The notes under the pieces were generated by a model. It worked only from the letters and a program-made list of their open reading frames with translations, was not told where the DNA came from and made no database searches. Position numbers and translations under genes: made by a program. From a virus (taxonomy: Duplodnaviria > Heunggongvirae > Uroviricota > Caudoviricetes), in IMG/VR virus record IMGVR_UViG_3300042946_000144, positions 24,332-88,331 of that record: DNA of 64,000 bases; one strand, given 5' to 3'. The stretch's first letter is position 1. The number at the start of each line of letters is the position of its first letter. This document shows, one piece after another, positions 15,178 to 42,003 of this stretch.

Positions 15178-15905
15178 TATTTTCCGTTTGGTGCATTACT
15201 AGCCTGTCCATCCACTCCATCATCAGTCATATCTGTTTTAACTTGGAAGTATGTAGACAGGAGTTTTTTAGATGTTAGTTCCAACACTTGACTTTCCAGG
15301 TAACCAGGAAGTGCGAAGTCTTTGTCTAAAGGATTCTTGCACCATTCCTCATTGGTGGGCTGTGGTGTACCACAATCACATTCAGGATACATCACCTCAT
15401 TAGGAACATCTTGTTCGAAGAATGCAGAAATTCTAATTGCATGCATTAATGGGTTGCTTATGTATAAGTAACCATTCATAATCCAATAGTAATGTTCCTT
15501 CTTGATTATTGGGAGCTTAAGAAGATTTACATATCTATTCACTGTAATCTCTTTGAACTTTGTTCCCATTCCTCCCATAGCATTGATTGAATAAACTCCC
15601 TGTATAACATACTGATAATTTCCTTCAGAAATGCGAGGGAGCTTGTATCTACTTCTTGCTATTGTGCATTCATCAACATATTCACAACATTCAGAAATAG
15701 GAACTTCCACCATCTCCAAACAGGGAATGGTGGTAAATAGTGTGTTAGTTGCCCAAAGTTTTCTTAGGTTTGTTTCTCGTTTTACAAGAAGAAGGGTGTT
15801 GTTTCTGATCTCAGAAGCAATCACTCTGTCTGTGATTAGACTGTCTGTAGAAAGCAACTTGTGCATGCTACGTACATCTGAAACAAGTTTTCTAAGTGTT
15901 GACAT
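15177..15905 (-). CDS. hypothetical structural protein (242 aa)
   Basis: ORF in the operon; Cys-containing. Confidence 0.5.
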   Translation of the reverse strand: MSTLRKLVSDVRSMHKLLSTDSLITDRVIASEIRNNTLLLVKRETNLRKLWATNTLFTTIPCLEMVEVPISECCEYVDECTIARSRYKLPRISEGNYQYVIQGVYSINAMGGMGTKFKEITVNRYVNLLKLPIIKKEHYYWIMNGYLYISNPLMHAIRISAFFEQDVPNEVMYPECDCGTPQPTNEEWCKNPLDKDFALPGYLESQVLELTSKKLLSTYFQVKTDMTDDGVDGQASNAPNGK

Positions 15906-17176
15906 TATAAATACTGTTTGAATATATTTGTCATACCATCAAGCAGATCTATCATAAATGCTGTCACTTCTCCTTTAGAGCATGTGTAGCCATTTTTATC
16001 ATCCCATTGACTCTTAGCATTTGAGAATGCTGGGATTTGATAGAACTTGATTCCGTTAAAGTCTTGAGATAACTCATGATGTTTATCTCCTGTAAAGATG
16101 TAATAGTTGTTATGATTTGACCATCCATCTTTAAATTCCATAGGGAATATTCCTGCGAGCTTTGAAGGTTTGATAGCATCTCCGTGGTTAAACATCATTG
16201 CTGATGATCCGTAGGAAATGTACTTCCTATACTTAGGACTGTCATCAAATTTTAATCGAGAATTGCTTCTAAAAAACGTTGATAACCAATTAATTAGATG
16301 CCATCCTACAAACTCATCATGGTTCCCTGGTACATATATCACTTCAACTTCCCTGGAAGATTGAAGCATCAGTGTTATCATTCTAATCTCATGTTCACAA
16401 ACCATTCTGAATGATTCCTGATAAGATGTAATATTTGTTTGAGGAGTTCCTTTTGTTGTGGCATTTGTCCACTCACTGTTAAACTCATCAGAACCAATTA
16501 CATATACAATCTGATCGAGGTTGTTTGACAATCTTGCTTGAGAGATGATTGTTTCTGTCTTCTCAATGATTTTTGCAAATCTATCCTCCATGTTATTCTC
16601 ACCATCAACATCATGTTTGTTTAGGTGAGCATCTTGTTTGTTGATAACAAGACAACCATACGGTTTAACTGGCTCTATCTTAGGAAGCATTATGTCCTGA
16701 GAAGCTGGTTGATATTCCTTTAGAAACTCAACAAACACATCTTGGAACACTTGTTCTGTAGATTTCTTATTGAGCCAAGCTTTAACCTGCCAGTGTGGTG
16801 TAGAACTATTTCCCCAATAGTTCTGTACATATTTTGTAATTTCCCATTTAGAAGTGTCAATGTTACACTTCTCAATAAGATCGTCTAAACTTCTAATTTC
16901 ATTAGGGGTATTTAGAACAATCTCCCCAGTGCCCCTGGAGAGATCTTCCTCATACTTTACAATCCTTTCTTCTAGATCACCTATGTAATTAGCTGCTTCA
17001 GCCTCATTATTCAAACTTTCTCGATGTTTCAATTCCTTCATAAGCACTTCAACATCTTCTTCTGTGGTTCCTAGCTTTTCAGCATAGAACTTTTTACTCT
17101 TTTTCCACTGTAACATTTGTTCCAGCTGGAAGAGTAAATGCTGGTTGTTTGACATATGTAGTTTGTTTATTGTCAT
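15905..17176 (-). CDS. calcineurin-like metallophosphoesterase with N-terminal coiled-coil
   Basis: Motif series QDAHLNKHD (DxH), VIGSDEF (GDxxD variant), VPGNHDEF (GNHD/E), NHGD and GDKHHE. Confidence 0.55.
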   Translation of the reverse strand: MTINKLHMSNNQHLLFQLEQMLQWKKSKKFYAEKLGTTEEDVEVLMKELKHRESLNNEAEAANYIGDLEERIVKYEEDLSRGTGEIVLNTPNEIRSLDDLIEKCNIDTSKWEITKYVQNYWGNSSTPHWQVKAWLNKKSTEQVFQDVFVEFLKEYQPASQDIMLPKIEPVKPYGCLVINKQDAHLNKHDVDGENNMEDRFAKIIEKTETIISQARLSNNLDQIVYVIGSDEFNSEWTNATTKGTPQTNITSYQESFRMVCEHEIRMITLMLQSSREVEVIYVPGNHDEFVGWHLINWLSTFFRSNSRLKFDDSPKYRKYISYGSSAMMFNHGDAIKPSKLAGIFPMEFKDGWSNHNNYYIFTGDKHHELSQDFNGIKFYQIPAFSNAKSQWDDKNGYTCSKGEVTAFMIDLLDGMTNIFKQYL

Positions 17177-17234
17177 AAAGGTAAAGATTTATTCCAAATA
17201 TACCAAATTATTTCAACCTGGATGATTATATGGA

Positions 17235-17320
17235 ATAACCAAATTAATTAAATTAAAACCCCCAGCATGGAAATGCTAGGGGATGCTCCTGTAAAACCAA
17301 CAAAACAGGAGCTTTTTATA
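17235..17320. terminator. bidirectional terminator hairpin pair
   Basis: CCCCCAGCAT-GGAA-ATGCTAGGGG (17259..17282) with a T-rich run on the minus strand. GCTCCTGT-13nt loop-ACAGGAGC followed by TTTTTAT (17285..17319) on the plus strand. Confidence 0.55.
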
Positions 17321-23570: not shown

Positions 23571-24662
23571 TTATGGAATGTACATTATGTAATAGCAACC
23601 AATTCCAGGTTGATAGTTGTTGTGTGGAACATCTCCACCAGATGGAGCATTTGTAACAGCTACAGTTAATGTTGTTGGTTCTGTAAGAGTTCCGCTTTGT
23701 GTTCCAACTGTAGTTGCAGAAATGTGATTACCGCTTGAGTTTGTTCCAGCATATTCCTGAACTGTGTGTGTATGAGGATTTGGAGATACATTAGCTGCAG
23801 CTACGTGCGTGTGAGAAGGCATGTTGTCTGTGCTAAGAGCCACTCTATTTGTTCCAACAATTCCACCATTGTATATGTATGTAGGATTTCCTGTTGTTGC
23901 TGGATTTACAAGAACATTCATTGTTCCTCCAAGCATTGTTCCATCTGTAACACCTACAGCTACAACACCTCTTTTGTCTGGGGTTCCGTTTAAACCATTG
24001 CAAAGATATACCTTTTCCCAATTAGTTCCTGCAATACCTTTTCCTGTACTATCAAAATTATTTAAAGTTCCAGGAGTTGGATAGAATTCCATAGCTACGT
24101 ATGGAACCATCTTTGTGTAATACTTTGTAGAAGTTCCTTGTTCTTGTAGATATTGTCCAATCAATATAGGTAACTCGGTAACTGTTACATAAGTTACACC
24201 AACGTCTTCAACAAACTGACAAAATGCTTCGATTACATTTTGTAAAACTTGGTGCGTTGTTGAGCTTGCTGTTAAACCCTCTAAACAAGAAGGAATTGCG
24301 TAAGGTGAATTTATCTCGTCGAGCTCTGTGTTTATACTTGTGATTGATCCATTTATTGTTGTTATCTGAGCTTGCAAAGAACAAACAGACTTTACAAGAG
24401 CATTCAGAATATCAACTACACTAAGGTTTCCACACGTTGGAAGATTAGATGTTACAAGCTCACATAAATCTAATTGAGTTTTGTCAATTATGATTCCACT
24501 ACCATCTAAAGTGGATGTTAAAAACCCTATCAACGCTTGCTCTACATATGATAGGGAATCTCCAGTTTTAATACCTAGAACAGGAATATCAATACCTGTA
24601 TATCTTACGCATTGGTCAGATGTAATTTGCACACATCCGTTGTAGCAATTTGAGCAGCTCAT
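23571..24662 (-). CDS. tail fiber protein with C-terminal phage-tail-collar (MdpB-like) domain
   Basis: C-terminus NMPSHTHVAAANVSPNPHTHTV...GGDVPHNNYQPGIGCYYIMYIP matches the tail-collar HxH repeats and the N(M/Y)QPY...I ending. N-terminus MSCSNCYNGC. Confidence 0.65.
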   Translation of the reverse strand: MSCSNCYNGCVQITSDQCVRYTGIDIPVLGIKTGDSLSYVEQALIGFLTSTLDGSGIIIDKTQLDLCELVTSNLPTCGNLSVVDILNALVKSVCSLQAQITTINGSITSINTELDEINSPYAIPSCLEGLTASSTTHQVLQNVIEAFCQFVEDVGVTYVTVTELPILIGQYLQEQGTSTKYYTKMVPYVAMEFYPTPGTLNNFDSTGKGIAGTNWEKVYLCNGLNGTPDKRGVVAVGVTDGTMLGGTMNVLVNPATTGNPTYIYNGGIVGTNRVALSTDNMPSHTHVAAANVSPNPHTHTVQEYAGTNSSGNHISATTVGTQSGTLTEPTTLTVAVTNAPSGGDVPHNNYQPGIGCYYIMYIP

Positions 24663-37977: not shown

Positions 37978-38294
37978 GATTTTTTGTTTAGTTGTTGTTT
38001 CACTCTTTCTTCCTCATCACCTGTCATTATTTCCTCCCATTTTTTCAAGGGACAACTACAAGAAAGGCATCTGGTTTTAGCTGAGAGCGTACATCCACAT
38101 TCTACACAATGATGATCTGGTCTTATACTCTTATATCCCCTGTTCTTCTTTGCGTTCTCAGAATGATGCTCACAACCCAAACAAATCTTTGTTCTCTCGT
38201 TGCTCGTCAATTCTATTACACCCTTCATTTGAGCTGGGGGAATCAGCTTGTTCTTCCACCCCTCGTAAATCTGTGACAAAAGATTGTTGCCCAT
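37974..38294 (-). CDS. Cys-rich zinc-finger protein (106 aa)
   Basis: CLGCEHH...HHCVECGC...CLSCSC; overlaps the HU-like gene 3' end out of frame. Confidence 0.4.
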   Translation of the reverse strand: MGNNLLSQIYEGWKNKLIPPAQMKGVIELTSNERTKICLGCEHHSENAKKNRGYKSIRPDHHCVECGCTLSAKTRCLSCSCPLKKWEEIMTGDEEERVKQQLNKKS

Positions 38295-38631
38295 ATAACT
38301 TTGGTTTTAAATTCTCTATTGCAGCTGTTATGTTATTCACCTTACTTATTGTAGAAAGCCTTTTGGTTTCTGAAAGAGGGGTGTCTAGAAGCTCTAGCAA
38401 AACCTTCCTTTTATTCTCAAGAGAAGCCATCTTCTTAACAGCCTTCTTTGTATTGAAAATAAACTTCCCAAACCCAGAGATCTCCACCGTATTATTAGAA
38501 AGCAAAGCTGAATTAGCCTCACTAAACTGATGTGCTATGACAGCATCCACTATCTTCTCAGAAATAAGAAGCTTTGGAGCAATCTTCCTCACCAACCACT
38601 CCCTCATCGAAAGACTCTGTGGCTTATCCAT
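38170..38631 (-). CDS. HU/IHF-family DNA-binding protein
   Basis: IAHQFSEANSALLSNNTVEISGFGKFIF matches the HU beta-arm signature (GFGxF). Confidence 0.5.
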   Translation of the reverse strand: MDKPQSLSMREWLVRKIAPKLLISEKIVDAVIAHQFSEANSALLSNNTVEISGFGKFIFNTKKAVKKMASLENKRKVLLELLDTPLSETKRLSTISKVNNITAAIENLKPKLYGQQSFVTDLRGVEEQADSPSSNEGCNRIDEQRENKDLFGL

Positions 38632-39028
38632 GTGTCAAACTTATTTGCAATACAACATCCCTATCAAAAGGAAGAATTATAACAGGATTGACCTTCACCT
38701 TCGTCCCATCTTTCACTAACACTCCCACCTTCTTCAGCTTAGAAATGATGTTATTAATCGTTGGGCTTGTGCTGTCATACCTCTCACAAAACTCCTTCCT
38801 ATTATTAGCATAGGAAATATTCCCCCTAATAGCTGTAAATGCCACAAGCTGTATTTCTCTTGTTGTCAGCTTAAGACCGTTCACAGCAGAAAGAATAGAA
38901 TAATACCTTTCAGCTGAGGCGAAGTTATCGTCCACCTGCTTTTTAAGCTTCTGCACAACTATGTTATTAGCCTTGTCCATATTTAGTTTATACAAAGATA
39001 GGAATATTAGAATAGATGTCAAATACAT
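38624..39028 (-). CDS. hypothetical protein, possible DNA-binding regulator
   Basis: ORF; likely start at the internal MDKANN. Confidence 0.35.
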   Translation of the reverse strand: MYLTSILIFLSLYKLNMDKANNIVVQKLKKQVDDNFASAERYYSILSAVNGLKLTTREIQLVAFTAIRGNISYANNRKEFCERYDSTSPTINNIISKLKKVGVLVKDGTKVKVNPVIILPFDRDVVLQISLTHG

Positions 39029-39048
39029 TTATTACATGAAATGCTATA

Positions 39049-39366
39049 TTATGCATCAATTTCTTTATAAAACTTCAAAACAATGTTGAAGAAGAAAAAC
39101 CCAATCTCCAACTTCTCAAAATAAGAAAGAGGATATAACAACTCTTTATCATCACTCTCATCAAATCCTGGATAGTAGGAAACACCTAGTGTAAATTCTG
39201 TAACACTAGTGAACCTATTTATCTCCAATCCTAGTTCAATCTCATAACTAGTGAATATACCAATGAGAATAGTTGATATAATAATCAACAAATAAAACCA
39301 TCCAACAATAGAAACAATCAATTCCATAACTTTTCGTTTTAACTGTGTTTGTATATAAAGGAGCAT
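39049..39366 (-). CDS. small membrane protein (105 aa)
   Basis: Hydrophobic segment LIVSIVGWFYLLIIISTILIGIF. First gene of the minus-strand module. Confidence 0.4.
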   Translation of the reverse strand: MLLYIQTQLKRKVMELIVSIVGWFYLLIIISTILIGIFTSYEIELGLEINRFTSVTEFTLGVSYYPGFDESDDKELLYPLSYFEKLEIGFFFFNIVLKFYKEIDA

Positions 39367-39606
39367 TTATGTCCTACCCCACCCAGCACACCCCAAAGTT
39401 ACTGGTGTTTCCAAATACAAACCAAATATTTTTTTCCATAGAAGGAAAAATTATTTTAAAACCCCCACCCAGCCTAGGAAAAATTTTTATATCCCCCCCT
39501 ACCTATTATATGCATAGGAGAAGGGACTACTCCCAGTTCCAACCCCTCCCATAATTTGGGGGATCGTGGGTATCCCCCGTATTGTTAATCACTAAATCTT
39601 AAAACT
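39367..39606. promoter_or_regulatory. divergent control region between the structural (minus) and early (plus) modules
   Basis: Direct repeat CCCCACCCAGC at 39377..39387 and 39463..39473. Poly-C runs. Palindrome TATGCATA at 39509..39516. Hairpins GGGA-CTAC-TCCC and GGGGGAT-CGTGGGT-ATCCCCC at 39557..39577. Confidence 0.5.
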
Positions 39607-39990
39607 ATGGCACTACAATTCGCCAAGTACGAAAGGGCAGAGAGCACCCTTGAATCTCTCGGAACAGTATTAGAGAATGTTGGAAAGGACGGTTTCCTTG
39701 AACTCATTCCACGCAATGTTAAGGATGTGACCAAGCGTGTTGTTGTCATCCTTAAGAAGAAGAATGGTACCAGCACAATGGTTACTTGTTCTCAGCAAGT
39801 GTCTGATGGTATCAGAAACAAAACCATTGAGTTGGGGCACGTTCTGAACTTTGAGATTCTTGAAGGAGAAGCAGGTGTTCCATTCATCAGCATGCCTGGT
39901 GGTCTCATCAGCGTTGCTGTTAAGAGCATCACTGTTAAGGACTATGCTGTTGACACCACTTCCATCAGTTTGGAAGATCTCATCGGATGA
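39607..39990 (+). CDS. hypothetical early protein (127 aa)
   Basis: First plus-strand ORF, followed by a perfect terminator. Confidence 0.5.
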   Translation: MALQFAKYERAESTLESLGTVLENVGKDGFLELIPRNVKDVTKRVVVILKKKNGTSTMVTCSQQVSDGIRNKTIELGHVLNFEILEGEAGVPFISMPGGLISVAVKSITVKDYAVDTTSISLEDLIG

Positions 39991-39993
39991 TAA

Positions 39994-40018
39994 AAGGGGC
40001 TTTGCCCCTTTTTTATAT
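39994..40018 (+). terminator. rho-independent terminator
   Basis: GGGGC-TTT-GCCCC followed by TTTTTT. Confidence 0.8.
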
Positions 40019-40411
40019 ATAGGGTGGGCTGTAATGCATTTAGGGTGGGGAAGTAAAACAGTATTTCCTTCATAACTAATTGATTATCAGCTCATTCTAT
40101 ATATTTTATTGAGGGTGAATGAGGTGATGTAGAACCCATTCTGGAATATAAACAACATTTCTCCATCTTGTCAAATCAAAAGGCATTTGGCATAAATATA
40201 GCATTATGATTACACTTTGTGTTCTACCTAACTTTGTTGGTACTAAGAGAGAGTTTATACTATGTGCTCTTTCTTGTTTATTATTAGATAGTATTTATCT
40301 TGTTCCTATGATATGTGGGCTGTAACAAGCCCATTTCTGTCCATAGACTATTGTCTATGCTGATGATGACCTAATTGAGGGTCGAAACAGAAACACACAA
40401 AACTAAATAAA

Positions 40412-40666
40412 ATGGAACAGTCTTTAAAGGTTATAGGAAAGATTACACTTCCTGATGCTCCTGAAAAGCATAAATGTGTATGTGATGATTGTAAAGATGT
40501 TTTGGATGATTCATACGGTGATCCAAGAACTAAAATTACCACTGAATATTTAGATGGTTCTAAAAGTGAGAGGTTTATATGTCCTAATTGTGAGTTTATG
40601 AAATATGTGGATCATGAACCAATTAGTATATTTGATGGTACACCAGATTGGATGAGAATGTTATAA
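40412..40666 (+). CDS. zinc-ribbon-like small protein (84 aa)
   Basis: CVCDDCKD ... CPNC. Confidence 0.45.
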   Translation: MEQSLKVIGKITLPDAPEKHKCVCDDCKDVLDDSYGDPRTKITTEYLDGSKSERFICPNCEFMKYVDHEPISIFDGTPDWMRML

Positions 40667-40692
40667 GAGCCTGTAACAGGGCTCTTTCTTTT
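40666..40692 (+). terminator. rho-independent terminator
   Basis: AGAGCC-TGTAACA-GGGCTCT followed by TTCTTTT, overlapping the stop codon. Confidence 0.7.
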
Positions 40693-40765
40693 GGGTCTAT
40701 AGTTAAATGGATATAACCACAGCCTTCTAAGCTGTTGTTCCTAGTTCGATTCTAGGTGGACCTAC
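40693..40765 (+). tRNA. tRNA-Arg (anticodon UCU)
   Basis: Acceptor GGGTCTA/TGGACCT (two GU pairs). D-stem GTTA/TAAC. Anticodon stem ACAGC/GCTGT with loop CTTCTAA. T-arm CCTAG-TTCGATT-CTAGG. 73 nt, no encoded CCA. Confidence 0.85.
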
Positions 40766-40805
40766 TAATCATTTATTAATTACACACAATTAAATCAAAT
40801 TCAAC

Positions 40806-40931
40806 ATGAAAAAGATCATCGTTTTAGCAATTTTGGCAATCGTTGCCTTCAGTTCTTGCACCACTTCTAAGTATGGCTGCTATGAAACAAAAGACCGTGG
40901 AATTATTTACAGACCATTACACAGATATTAA
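40806..40931 (+). CDS. small lipoprotein (41 aa)
   Basis: MKKIIVLAILAIVAFSSCTTSKYGCYETKDRGIIYRPLHRY: signal peptide plus lipobox-like AFSSC. Below the ORF-track cutoff. Confidence 0.4.
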   Translation: MKKIIVLAILAIVAFSSCTTSKYGCYETKDRGIIYRPLHRY

Positions 40932-40957
40932 TTCACACATTTAAAACTACATTTAAC

Positions 40958-41113
40958 ATGGAAAAGATTATTGCTCCTGTTGAACAGGAAAACAACGAGC
41001 TTTCTCACGCAGAACAGCTTAATGCTATTAGCGAAACAATGTCAAATGAACAAGATGATTGGTTCTTAGACCAAATCATTCAAGGACAACCCAACTTTTG
41101 GTGGGTTTATTAA
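40958..41113 (+). CDS. small acidic protein (51 aa)
   Basis: Manual ORF MEKIIAPVEQENNELSHAEQLNAISETMSNEQDDWFLDQIIQGQPNFWWVY. Confidence 0.3.
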   Translation: MEKIIAPVEQENNELSHAEQLNAISETMSNEQDDWFLDQIIQGQPNFWWVY

Positions 41114-41134
41114 GAAGGTCAAACACCTAAGCAT

Positions 41135-41377
41135 GTGTTAAAACTGCTTTTTTTATTTACAATTAAAACTCTTATATTTATGTCACAAACAAAATGGAAA
41201 ATATGGTTCGTTGTATCGTTTATGTGGATTATGCTTCACATATTCTTGTTTACAATTTCTACAGATGAGCAAAGAATTACATTAATACATAATTCTCTGT
41301 TTATGGCAGGAGCTTGGCTTTCTGCTATAAACATATCGTTTGTCTTGTATGTAGGAAACCTAAAAGACGATAAATAA
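41135..41377 (+). CDS. small integral membrane protein (80 aa, 2-3 TM)
   Basis: Hydrophobic segments. Confidence 0.45.
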   Translation: MLKLLFLFTIKTLIFMSQTKWKIWFVVSFMWIMLHIFLFTISTDEQRITLIHNSLFMAGAWLSAINISFVLYVGNLKDDK

Positions 41378-41454
41378 TAACAACATTGTGTGTGGGTAAC
41401 CCAAAGCCTATATGGTGGAGGGTTTCCAACACATGTCTAAAACCCCATTAAATC

Positions 41455-42003
41455 ATGCTACACACAGTAAGACTAATTCCAAGATCATACATTCCAGATG
41501 ATATAAAACCAGGAATGTTGTTCTTTACAGACAGAATCATACAAGTGGACAAAGTTCCTTTAGATGAGAAGAAGTTCTTCGAGGAATATGGCTATCCTGT
41601 TGAATTCTATCTTTTAGACCAAGATCCAAACCTCAGATGGTCTAATGTATTAGCCACACCACAACAGATTGGTTGGTTTGATTATGATCCTGAGGGAGAA
41701 GATTTTGCTGATATTACAGTGGATCATCTCAATATGATCATCTCTGACTATGACGGATTTTGTCAAATTGATGTATATACAGACAATTTGGATGATGATG
41801 AGGCACATGAAGAATATGTCAAGGTGATGCCTGAACTGTTGGAAGGTAAAGTGATCATTCATACAATAGAATATGAAGAGGATGAAGATGATTGGGAAGA
41901 TGATGAAGATCTTCAGTGGGAATATATGAATGGTGAATATGAAGAGGAGGATGACTATTACGAACCAACAGATGAAGATGATGACACATGGAAAGAAAAC
42001 TAA
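41455..42003 (+). CDS. highly acidic early protein (182 aa); DNA-mimic/anti-restriction candidate
   Basis: About 30% D+E; C-terminus EYEEDEDDWEDDEDLQWEYMNGEYEEEDDYYEPTDEDDDTWKEN. Confidence 0.5.
   Translation: MLHTVRLIPRSYIPDDIKPGMLFFTDRIIQVDKVPLDEKKFFEEYGYPVEFYLLDQDPNLRWSNVLATPQQIGWFDYDPEGEDFADITVDHLNMIISDYDGFCQIDVYTDNLDDDEAHEEYVKVMPELLEGKVIIHTIEYEEDEDDWEDDEDLQWEYMNGEYEEEDDYYEPTDEDDDTWKEN

Follow-up and report, generated by a model that had tools for sequence, protein, structure and literature searches.

In phage phi14:2, the rightward early genes are transcribed by a virion RNA polymerase and the leftward genes by the host RNA polymerase from sigma-70-like promoters; early non-coding RNAs are abundant, and strong transcription covers long non-coding stretches close to the beginning of the early module (bioRxiv 10.1101/2020.03.07.982082). 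In phage crAss001, DNA-binding proteins are encoded at the proximal ends of both genome halves. Here we analysed a 64,000-nucleotide stretch of viral DNA, referred to below as the window (IMG/VR record IMGVR_UViG_3300042946_000144, positions 24,332 to 88,331), and in it the 240-bp gap at 39367-39606 from which two opposed gene modules diverge. Our analysis suggests that this gap is probably the central back-to-back transcription control region of a crAss-like phage, with a predicted leftward promoter (PL) in its left half and a highly conserved core and stem-loop in its right half. A divergent phage control region is a known kind of element; the predicted grammar, in which C runs are phased and combined with hairpins, the core is single-copy and the GGGTGGG box always points the way its neighbouring genes are read, is new. 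The window resembles phi14:2 in its two opposed modules and in a 421-nt non-coding stretch that follows the first rightward gene, and differs from it in having an invariant 45-nt core and conserved G boxes, whereas the middle promoters of phi14:2 are sigma-70-like; the two show no sequence similarity. The divergent gap of crAss001, in contrast to the one described here, has no C tracts, G boxes or comparable motifs.

The window comes from a crAss-like phage with a genome of about 111-115 kb and hundreds of relatives in freshwater metagenomes. Its terminase (PHROG 6681) and portal (PHROG 6547) matched crAss-type PHROGs, and these genes lie in the leftward module together with the major head protein and a large virion protein of 1,855 aa, which is of the crAss RNA polymerase type (PHROG 37948); the rightward module encodes DNA polymerase, a DnaB-like helicase, primase and rIIA/B. 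The nearest cultured phages are crAss-like or related, with a terminase identity of only 26-40% (about 32% for the nearest Cellulophaga phages, phi17:2 and phi4:1), and about 500 IMG/VR contigs, many of 110-115 kb, carry a terminase that is 85-90% identical. The G + C content of the genome is 36%. The host is probably a member of the Bacteroidota, judging from the crAss-like relatedness and the type of promoter. A blastn search of 38500-40500 against 50,697 phage records gave no match, and the annotation of phage Lbo-JY46 was found to have a different gene layout. For comparison we used 81 related loci, 42 distinct related gaps and 98 distinct right flanks, and built alignments of the left block (A1, 31 relatives), the core (A2) and the winged-helix protein encoded to the left of the gap (A3).

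The opposed open reading frames (ORFs) end at 39366 and start at 39607, in agreement with the original prediction, which had placed the gap between two oppositely transcribed modules. The left ORF, 39049-39366, has no homologue in the 81 related loci, and the true non-coding stretch may therefore exceed the gap. With the 240 bp as nhmmer query, a homologous gap was found in about 45 of the 81 loci; altogether, more than 60 related contigs have kept it, and the flanking small genes are not conserved. The core and hairpin stand directly upstream of whichever gene comes first on the right, so that the same leader precedes different first genes. Coding explanations of this conservation were rejected: a 69-aa ORF with a GTG start at 39345-39554 has no conserved frame or stop, and the ATG of the ATGGGAG motif in the core opens a 12-codon frame in one relative, runs on in another (L003) and is ATA in the window. 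Conservation of the core has no 3-nt period. The features of the gap are as follows.

39373-39393, minus strand: G-rich initial transcribed region of PL (predicted), GGGTGTGCTGGGTGGGGTAGG, containing the complement of the first CCCCACCCAGC (39377-39387)
39394-39401, minus strand: -7 box TAACTTTG (TAnnTTTG) of PL
39423-39426, minus strand: -33 element TTTG of PL
39429-39435, no strand assigned: T7/A7 tract directly upstream of the PL -33 element, consensus AAAAAnAAATTTGG
39443-39473, no strand assigned: unit 1, made up of the A/T palindrome AAAAATTATTTT, a spacer and C5
39476-39499, no strand assigned: unit 2, made up of the palindrome AAAAATTTTT, a spacer and C7
39502-39546, plus strand: core element of 45 nt, made up of the AT box TATTATATGCATA, G-rich AGGAGAAGGGACTACTCC, N8 and ACCCC
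39551-39585, plus strand: stem-loop, with an inner G5AT/ATC5 helix extended by ATAAT/ATTGT (minimum-free-energy fold)

In flavobacteria the sigma-A promoter box TAnnTTTG lies at -12 to -5 (PMC9723704). On the minus strand of the gap, TTTG-N21-TAACTTTG was found at 39394-39426, directed into the leftward operon. Alignment of the left block revealed an invariant TT in the -33 element of the 31 relatives, and a -7 box whose TA, TTT and G vary little or not at all; the boxes are kept at a fixed spacing around a 20-nt filler that varies freely. TTTG-N20-22-TAnnTTTG is present in 35 of the 42 distinct gaps, with a spacer of 21 nt in 31 of them, 20 nt in two and 22 nt in two. The minus-strand consensus of the whole left block reads AAAAAnAAATTTGG-N20-TAACTTTGGGG-N4-6-TGGGTGGGG-WAGG. 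With a -7 box, a -33 box within the 19-21 nt upstream of it that the class allows, and an orientation proper to that class, PL is a predicted Bacteroidetes sigma-A promoter. It resembles the primary-sigma promoters of Bacteroidetes in having TTTG-N21-TAACTTTG toward the leftward genes, an A-rich upstream tract and a variable filler, and differs from them in the conserved, unusually G-rich start that follows it, GGGG-N5-TGGGTGGGG, a comparison in which both the start and the host phylum are predictions. The GGG...GGG columns of this initial region are invariant or nearly so in the left-block alignment, and of the 35 relatives with PL, 32 have GGGTGGG no more than 30 nt downstream of it. In many relatives the winged-helix gene follows directly downstream, 186-340 nt from the core. 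In the shortest gaps (L020 and L009) the T7/A7 tract joins the rightward element directly, so that the two sides share it back to back. A scan for sigma-70 sites found none in the gap, and fewer sites than in shuffled sequences.

Because the -7 box should occupy -12 to -5, the leftward start is predicted near 39389, and the first CCCCACCCAGC would therefore be complementary to nucleotides +3 to +13 of the leftward transcript. In the original prediction, CCCCACCCAGC was a repeat present twice, 86 bp apart, in a candidate bidirectional promoter or operator, or replication initiation site. Both copies are there (39377-39387 and 39463-39473), and they are the only ones in the 64 kb on either strand, even when one mismatch is allowed; shuffled windows have 0.26 copies on average, and 1 of 100 shuffles reaches two. 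The divergent control region is real, in that the gap, the leftward promoter and the core are conserved, but a reading of the two copies as an operator pair is not supported. The first is the complement of the conserved G-rich start GGGTGGGG, the predicted transcribed start of the leftward unit, while the second consists of the C5 of unit 1 and a lineage-specific ACCCAGC, and only its C run is conserved. CCCACCC occurs once in 31 of the 42 distinct gaps, twice in 5 and not at all in 6; the exact duplication of the 11-mer is no family feature. The smaller elements that had been described were all located: the C5-C7 runs (C5 at 39462-39466, C7 at 39493-39499 and C5 at 39574-39578, which are 3 of the 13 plus-strand runs of at least five C in the window), the palindrome TATGCATA (39509-39516) inside TATATGCATA (39507-39516), and the hairpin formed by GGGGGAT (39558-39564) and ATCCCCC (39572-39578) around an N7 loop.

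Two further observations concern sequences to the left of PL. To the left of the PL start region, at 39352-39363, lies a moderately conserved plus-strand box, TATATAaAGG(AG), which resembles the AT-box-plus-G grammar of the rightward elements and might belong to the leftward 5′ untranslated region or act as a rightward promoter facing PL. Farther down the leftward module, an intrinsic terminator on the minus strand at 17259-17290, CCCCTAGCAT-ttcc-ATGCTGGGGG followed by a T run, is succeeded by a TATATTTG box (TAnnTTTG) at 17195-17202 on the same strand, 22 nt upstream of the gene at 15905-17176; this box is a second predicted promoter of the host type.

The core of the right half has the family consensus TRTnnATGGGAGnGGAGnnTACTnC-N8-ACCCC in the core alignment. 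An nhmmer profile of it gave one match per locus and one in the 64-kb window, and a scan of IMG/VR with the exact core pattern gave 23 contigs with one match each, among them contigs of 104-119 kb; no match was found in 185,579 bacterial and archaeal species genomes. The core alignment showed no host-type boxes, coding signature or covariation. Pairing between GGGAG and CTCC within the core was considered and rejected, as the middle position varies freely (C, T, A or G) against an invariant G. An inverted repeat formed by the left C block and the right G block, a candidate for long-range pairing, is nearly invariant on both sides.

The stem-loop that follows is conserved in form. Its G-run/C-run helix is present in all relatives, and in most of them it is enclosed by an outer stem of arbitrary sequence, for example TTGTGTG/CACACAA, TTAGGCG/CGCCTAA, TTGCTGG/CCAGCAA or CTGAGAG/CTCTCAG. 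Because the register of the outer stem's 3′ arm differs among relatives, covariation was assessed by comparing duplexes of each 5′ arm with its own partner and with the partners of other relatives; the energies were -6.2 and -3.8 kcal/mol, respectively (p=2.7e-4), and the outer stem therefore covaries. The stem-loop is also more stable on the plus than on the minus strand (p=0.016), which is the signature of G-U pairs in a rightward RNA or in plus-strand single-stranded DNA. A scan of the window flagged the hairpin at 39557-39579 as an intrinsic terminator; this was rejected, since the relatives have no T run after the stem.

Between PL and the core, relatives carry 0-4 units, each consisting of a small palindrome, 3-6 nt, a run of C5-8 and then usually TA. 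The palindromes are A5T5, TTCCACGTGGAA or GTAAA-N8-TTTAC, and the two units of the window form a direct repeat of 24 nt that is 79% identical, with the copies 33 nt apart. Measured end to end, the distance between C runs has a sharp peak at 29-33 nt (71 of 191 spacings), a phasing of about 31 nt or about three helical turns. The spacers between C runs are more hairpin-prone than shuffled sequences (p=7.5e-6), with an unclear strand preference (p=0.06). In many relatives a perfect or near-perfect palindrome, TTYCACGTGRAA, adjoins a C run in the middle of the gap (L076, L047, L042, L035, L058, L059, L071 and L080 are among the carriers). It is absent from the window, and is likely an operator for a dimeric regulator that the window lineage lacks or has replaced with A5T5 palindromes.

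To the right of the gap, three further features complete the rightward side.

39607-39990, plus strand: first rightward gene, 127 aa, hypervariable or replaced in relatives
39992-40012, plus strand: intrinsic terminator after the first gene, with a nine-pair stem and a T run
40014-40050, plus strand: second conserved element (G-box element), TATATATA-GGGTGGG-N14 (with the palindrome AATGCATT)-GGGTGGGG

By tblastn the first rightward gene was found in 12-13 of the 81 loci, with 29-73% identity in the first search; it has 42 homologue clusters and no match in Pfam or PHROG, and one relative (L005) carries a different first gene of 142 aa in its place. It appears to be a cassette between conserved non-coding elements, as would be expected of an early gene for host takeover or anti-defence that can be exchanged. 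In relatives, equivalent hairpins precede the G-box element, as the terminator does in the window.

The G-box element, 520 bp to the right of the GGGTGGG of the gap in the window, repeats the G box that is the complement of CCCCACCCAGC. Five of the eight GGG[AT]GGG occurrences in the window fall within 39384-40049, three of them in the gap (minus strand) and the other two at 40022 and 40043 (plus strand). The pattern TATATATA-GGGTGGG-N9-26-GGGTGGG(G) recurs in 83 of the 98 distinct right flanks, 483-1700 nt and mostly 500-650 nt downstream of the core, and L005 has two tandem copies of the element (e.g. at 2312-2348 on the minus strand of that locus). The central loops are hairpin-prone (p=1.6e-12) and far more stable on the plus than on the minus strand (p=6.8e-11). 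The single-nucleotide loop of box 1 is T in 83 of 83 cases, a count partly biased by the T-requiring pattern with which part of the set was fetched. A loop that is always T argues for base-specific recognition, and the spread of the central gap, 9 to 26 nt, speaks against a protein bound rigidly to two sites. Outside the clade, what matches the G-box pattern looks like chance occurrences in G-rich DNA, of which tens are expected by estimate given the size of the collection. Two minor observations belong here: a motif, CATAACTCATTGAT, recurs 15-25 nt after the second G box, and the whole non-coding stretch after the first rightward gene, 39991-40411 (421 nt), is partly conserved by nhmmer and possibly encodes an early non-coding RNA like those of phi14:2.

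On the leftward side, two genes for DNA-binding proteins stand close to the gap.

38627-38980, minus strand: winged-helix-like DNA-binding protein, 118 aa, first conserved leftward gene in most relatives
38170-38631, minus strand: HU/IHF-like DNA-binding protein (Pfam Bac_DNA_binding, E=9.6e-7; PHROG 379), in 78 of 81 loci

The winged-helix gene is present in 75 of the 81 loci with 57-86% identity, 186-600 nt from the core in most, and starts at the ATG at 38980 and not at 39028 as in the ORF listing (38624-39028). Its product resembles HTH_Mga and Phage_rep_O below the Pfam threshold in 11 of 12 members; the latter scores 17 bits against a cut-off of 28.7, with a best E of 0.0011, and a PHROG annotated as 'replication initiation protein' is matched at E=0.0014. 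The AlphaFold2 (AF2) model is of moderate confidence, with a mean predicted local distance difference test score (pLDDT) of 68.6, and a Foldseek search of it against the PDB gave nothing significant, the top matches being MarR-like with E at least 0.38. No terminase small-subunit family was matched. Taken together, the PDB profile search, Pfam, the AF2 model and Foldseek predict a generic winged helix and nothing more specific. Public metagenomes hold 2,167 clusters of its homologues at 90% identity, and the phage group must therefore be very abundant.

We favour the following account of these elements. PL, with its A-tract, TTTG, 21-nt spacer and TAACTTTG, would be read leftward by the host sigma-A polymerase from about 39389, into an operon with the order winged-helix protein, HU-like protein, small genes, terminase, portal and capsid. 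The right half, with its AT box, G-rich start (consensus ATGGGAGGGGAGG), 45-nt core and covarying stem-loop, would act as a promoter and structured 5′ leader, and the first rightward transcript, an early one at the head of the replication module, would be a short unit of leader, hypervariable gene and strong terminator. The rightward promoter would not be of the host sigma-A type, and an injected virion RNA polymerase may read it, by analogy with phi14:2. The 0-4 C-run/hairpin units between the two promoters would then be architectural or regulatory DNA that sets the promoter geometry. The layout on the right recalls the early region of phage T7, in which tandem A promoters and an RNase III hairpin precede the anti-restriction gene 0.3: here too, a strong-looking promoter region and a leader hairpin are followed by a fast-evolving first early gene in a short unit of its own. 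The analogy with T7 is one of layout, as there is no RNase III site or homology here.

Several points weigh against this account. Transcription starts in this phage group are predicted from sequence only, and TTTG-N18-22-TAnnTTTG is not enriched across the window (5 found, 2.8 expected), so that the case for PL rests on its conservation across genomes. The right half has no recognisable host -33/-7 boxes, and in phi14:2 the early transcripts share no common upstream motif (bioRxiv 10.1101/2020.03.07.982082). A promoter with a leader has no obvious need of an invariant 45-nt core that occurs once per genome, or of phased C runs. RNAalifold gave zero pairs on the full 40-sequence alignment, and the leader of the window folds no better than shuffled sequences (z=-1.19). 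Finally, a G run takes the place of the last C run in several relatives, a swap that the account does not explain, though it would fit a role in double-stranded DNA.

A more specific proposal for the early side, which we consider quite improbable, is that the grammar of AT box, G box and small hairpin marks structure-dependent early promoters for the crAss-type virion RNA polymerase. Its parts would be TATATATA-GGGTGGG-hairpin-GGGTGGGG at 40014-40050 on the plus strand, the ATGGGAGGGGAGG core, and the array of G runs with hairpins on the minus strand of the gap; extrusion of a sense-strand hairpin or hairpin-quadruplex would hold the template single-stranded, the form that the phi14:2 enzyme transcribes in vitro, where denatured DNA served as its template (Drobysheva et al., bioRxiv 10.1101/2020.03.07.982082). 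If this were true, these would be the first promoter class for a crAss-type virion polymerase and would include a conserved functional phage quadruplex. The virion RNA polymerase of phage N4 uses hairpin promoters upstream of the early genes. Like these, the elements here combine variable small hairpins with a short conserved motif in a phage that has a large virion protein (PHROG 37948); unlike them, they would serve a different polymerase family, their loops and stems vary widely, and the strand polarity reaches only p=0.06.

The same conserved elements can be read differently, and the first two readings below do not exclude each other or the promoters. An origin of replication, perhaps in addition to the promoters, is unlikely in our judgement. 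It would be a single-copy nucleoprotein site heading the replication module, at which either the phased C/G tracts and hairpins bind the winged-helix protein with help from the HU-like protein while the AT boxes melt, or the G-rich starts of the divergent transcripts form RNA-DNA hybrids on their C-rich templates and prime synthesis in both directions. ColE1, T4 oriF/oriG and the mitochondrial heavy-strand origin are primed by stable RNA-DNA hybrids of this sort, and lambda ori with its O protein is the example for iterons. As in such iteron or R-loop origins, the site is single-copy, with the core once per genome, and has repeats phased at 29-33 nt or about three helical turns, AT-rich boxes (A5T5 and TATTATATGCATA), promoters, sense-strand G clusters at the start of both divergent units, and adjoining genes for an HU-like protein and a winged-helix protein faintly similar to the N-terminal part of lambda O, with its Phage_rep_O and 'replication initiation protein' matches. 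The origin of the prototypical crAssphage has been predicted at an equivalent place, where its forward strand begins (PMC10983915). At 39-40 kb the cumulative GC skew reaches its minimum; since gene direction also changes there, the skew is not independent evidence. In contrast to true iterons, the repeats share only the C run, the spacers between C runs differ within and between genomes, and the number of units varies from none to four. DnaA boxes (TTWTNCACA) are absent from 39300-40450, and the window has 7 against 11 expected. The Rep_O similarity stays under the Pfam cut-off, the fold search gave only generic, non-significant MarR-like winged helices, and the gene lies in the leftward packaging and structural operon, outside the replication module.

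A packaging signal or terminal-repeat boundary seems very unlikely to us. The core-hairpin and the G-box element some 520-640 bp to its right would delimit a short direct terminal repeat, with the winged-helix protein as a small-terminase-like recognition subunit helped by the HU-like protein. The 576-bp direct terminal repeat of crAss001 (PMC6235969) is comparable to the usual core-to-G-box distance, and the two elements, each present once, are found 2.5 kb upstream of the large terminase, which shares an operon with the two DNA-binding proteins. Contig ends of relatives cluster inside the core, just to its right, or within about 120 nt after the G-box element (L077, L075, L039, L069, L021, L059, L023, L037, L081, L042 and L068); they fall at different bases, though, with no single fixed terminus, and a 103.6-kb contig that starts inside the core (L077) has no second copy at its other end. 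The start points of complete contigs, about 114 kb long, are arbitrary. Breaks in assembly where the hypervariable gene meets its flanks explain the clustering equally well, and it probably reflects breaks at conserved/variable junctions or in G-rich structured DNA. Moreover, the winged-helix protein gave no match to a terminase small-subunit family, and a hypervariable gene inside a terminal repeat would be unusual. Most improbable, in our view, is a non-B DNA or RNA switch, in which the C/G runs and hairpins would form an i-motif or hairpin-containing G-quadruplex (G4) that holds the AT boxes open or blocks polymerases, as the primary function of the region. Its candidates, proposed from sequence, are GGGTGGGCTGTAATGCATTTAGGGTGGGG and the minus strand of 39462-39499. 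The G-box element offers four G3 tracts, two 1-nt loops and a long hairpin-prone loop at 40022-40050 on the plus strand (GGGTGGG-N14-GGGTGGGG), and it is kept in relatives despite the 9-26 nt range of its central gap; in the gap proper, the minus strand has G7-N22-GGGTGGGGG (39499-39462), whose long loop holds the A5T5 palindrome. Both resemble long-loop quadruplexes, which hairpins stabilise (PMC8501965), although the G7-N22-GGGTGGGGG of the gap occurs in the window only. GGGTGGG-type tracts form a parallel quadruplex in c-MYC Pu22. The G4/i-motif potential noted earlier for the complement of the C runs is not conserved: within the gap, a canonical G4 motif occurs in 8 of 42 relatives on the minus strand and in none on the plus strand, and a long-loop motif in 4 of 42. 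The left block of the window reads GGGG-6-GGG-1-GGGG-2-GG on the minus strand, that is, three tracts of at least G3 and a GG instead of four, and most C runs are C5-C6 and about 24 nt apart, too distant for ordinary i-motifs or G4s. The invariant T in the loop of box 1 exceeds what a quadruplex needs and points to sequence-specific reading.

Should the gap be a promoter pair and nothing more, it would count as an ordinary control region, though a well-resolved one. For an uncultured group very abundant in lakes it supplies a map of regulation, in which the predicted host-type late promoter, the early element of a non-host type with its covarying hairpin and the recurring GGGTGGG are testable anchors, and it touches on questions common to crAss-like phages: how the virion RNA polymerase recognises its templates, where replication starts, and how first early genes are exchanged between conserved flanks.

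Rfam 15 covariance models were also run on 38500-41500. All models but one had E>0.5, far under their gathering scores; the model that passed identified a tRNA-Arg gene (anticodon TCT) at 40693-40765, which lies in the early region and is the sole tRNA gene of the window.

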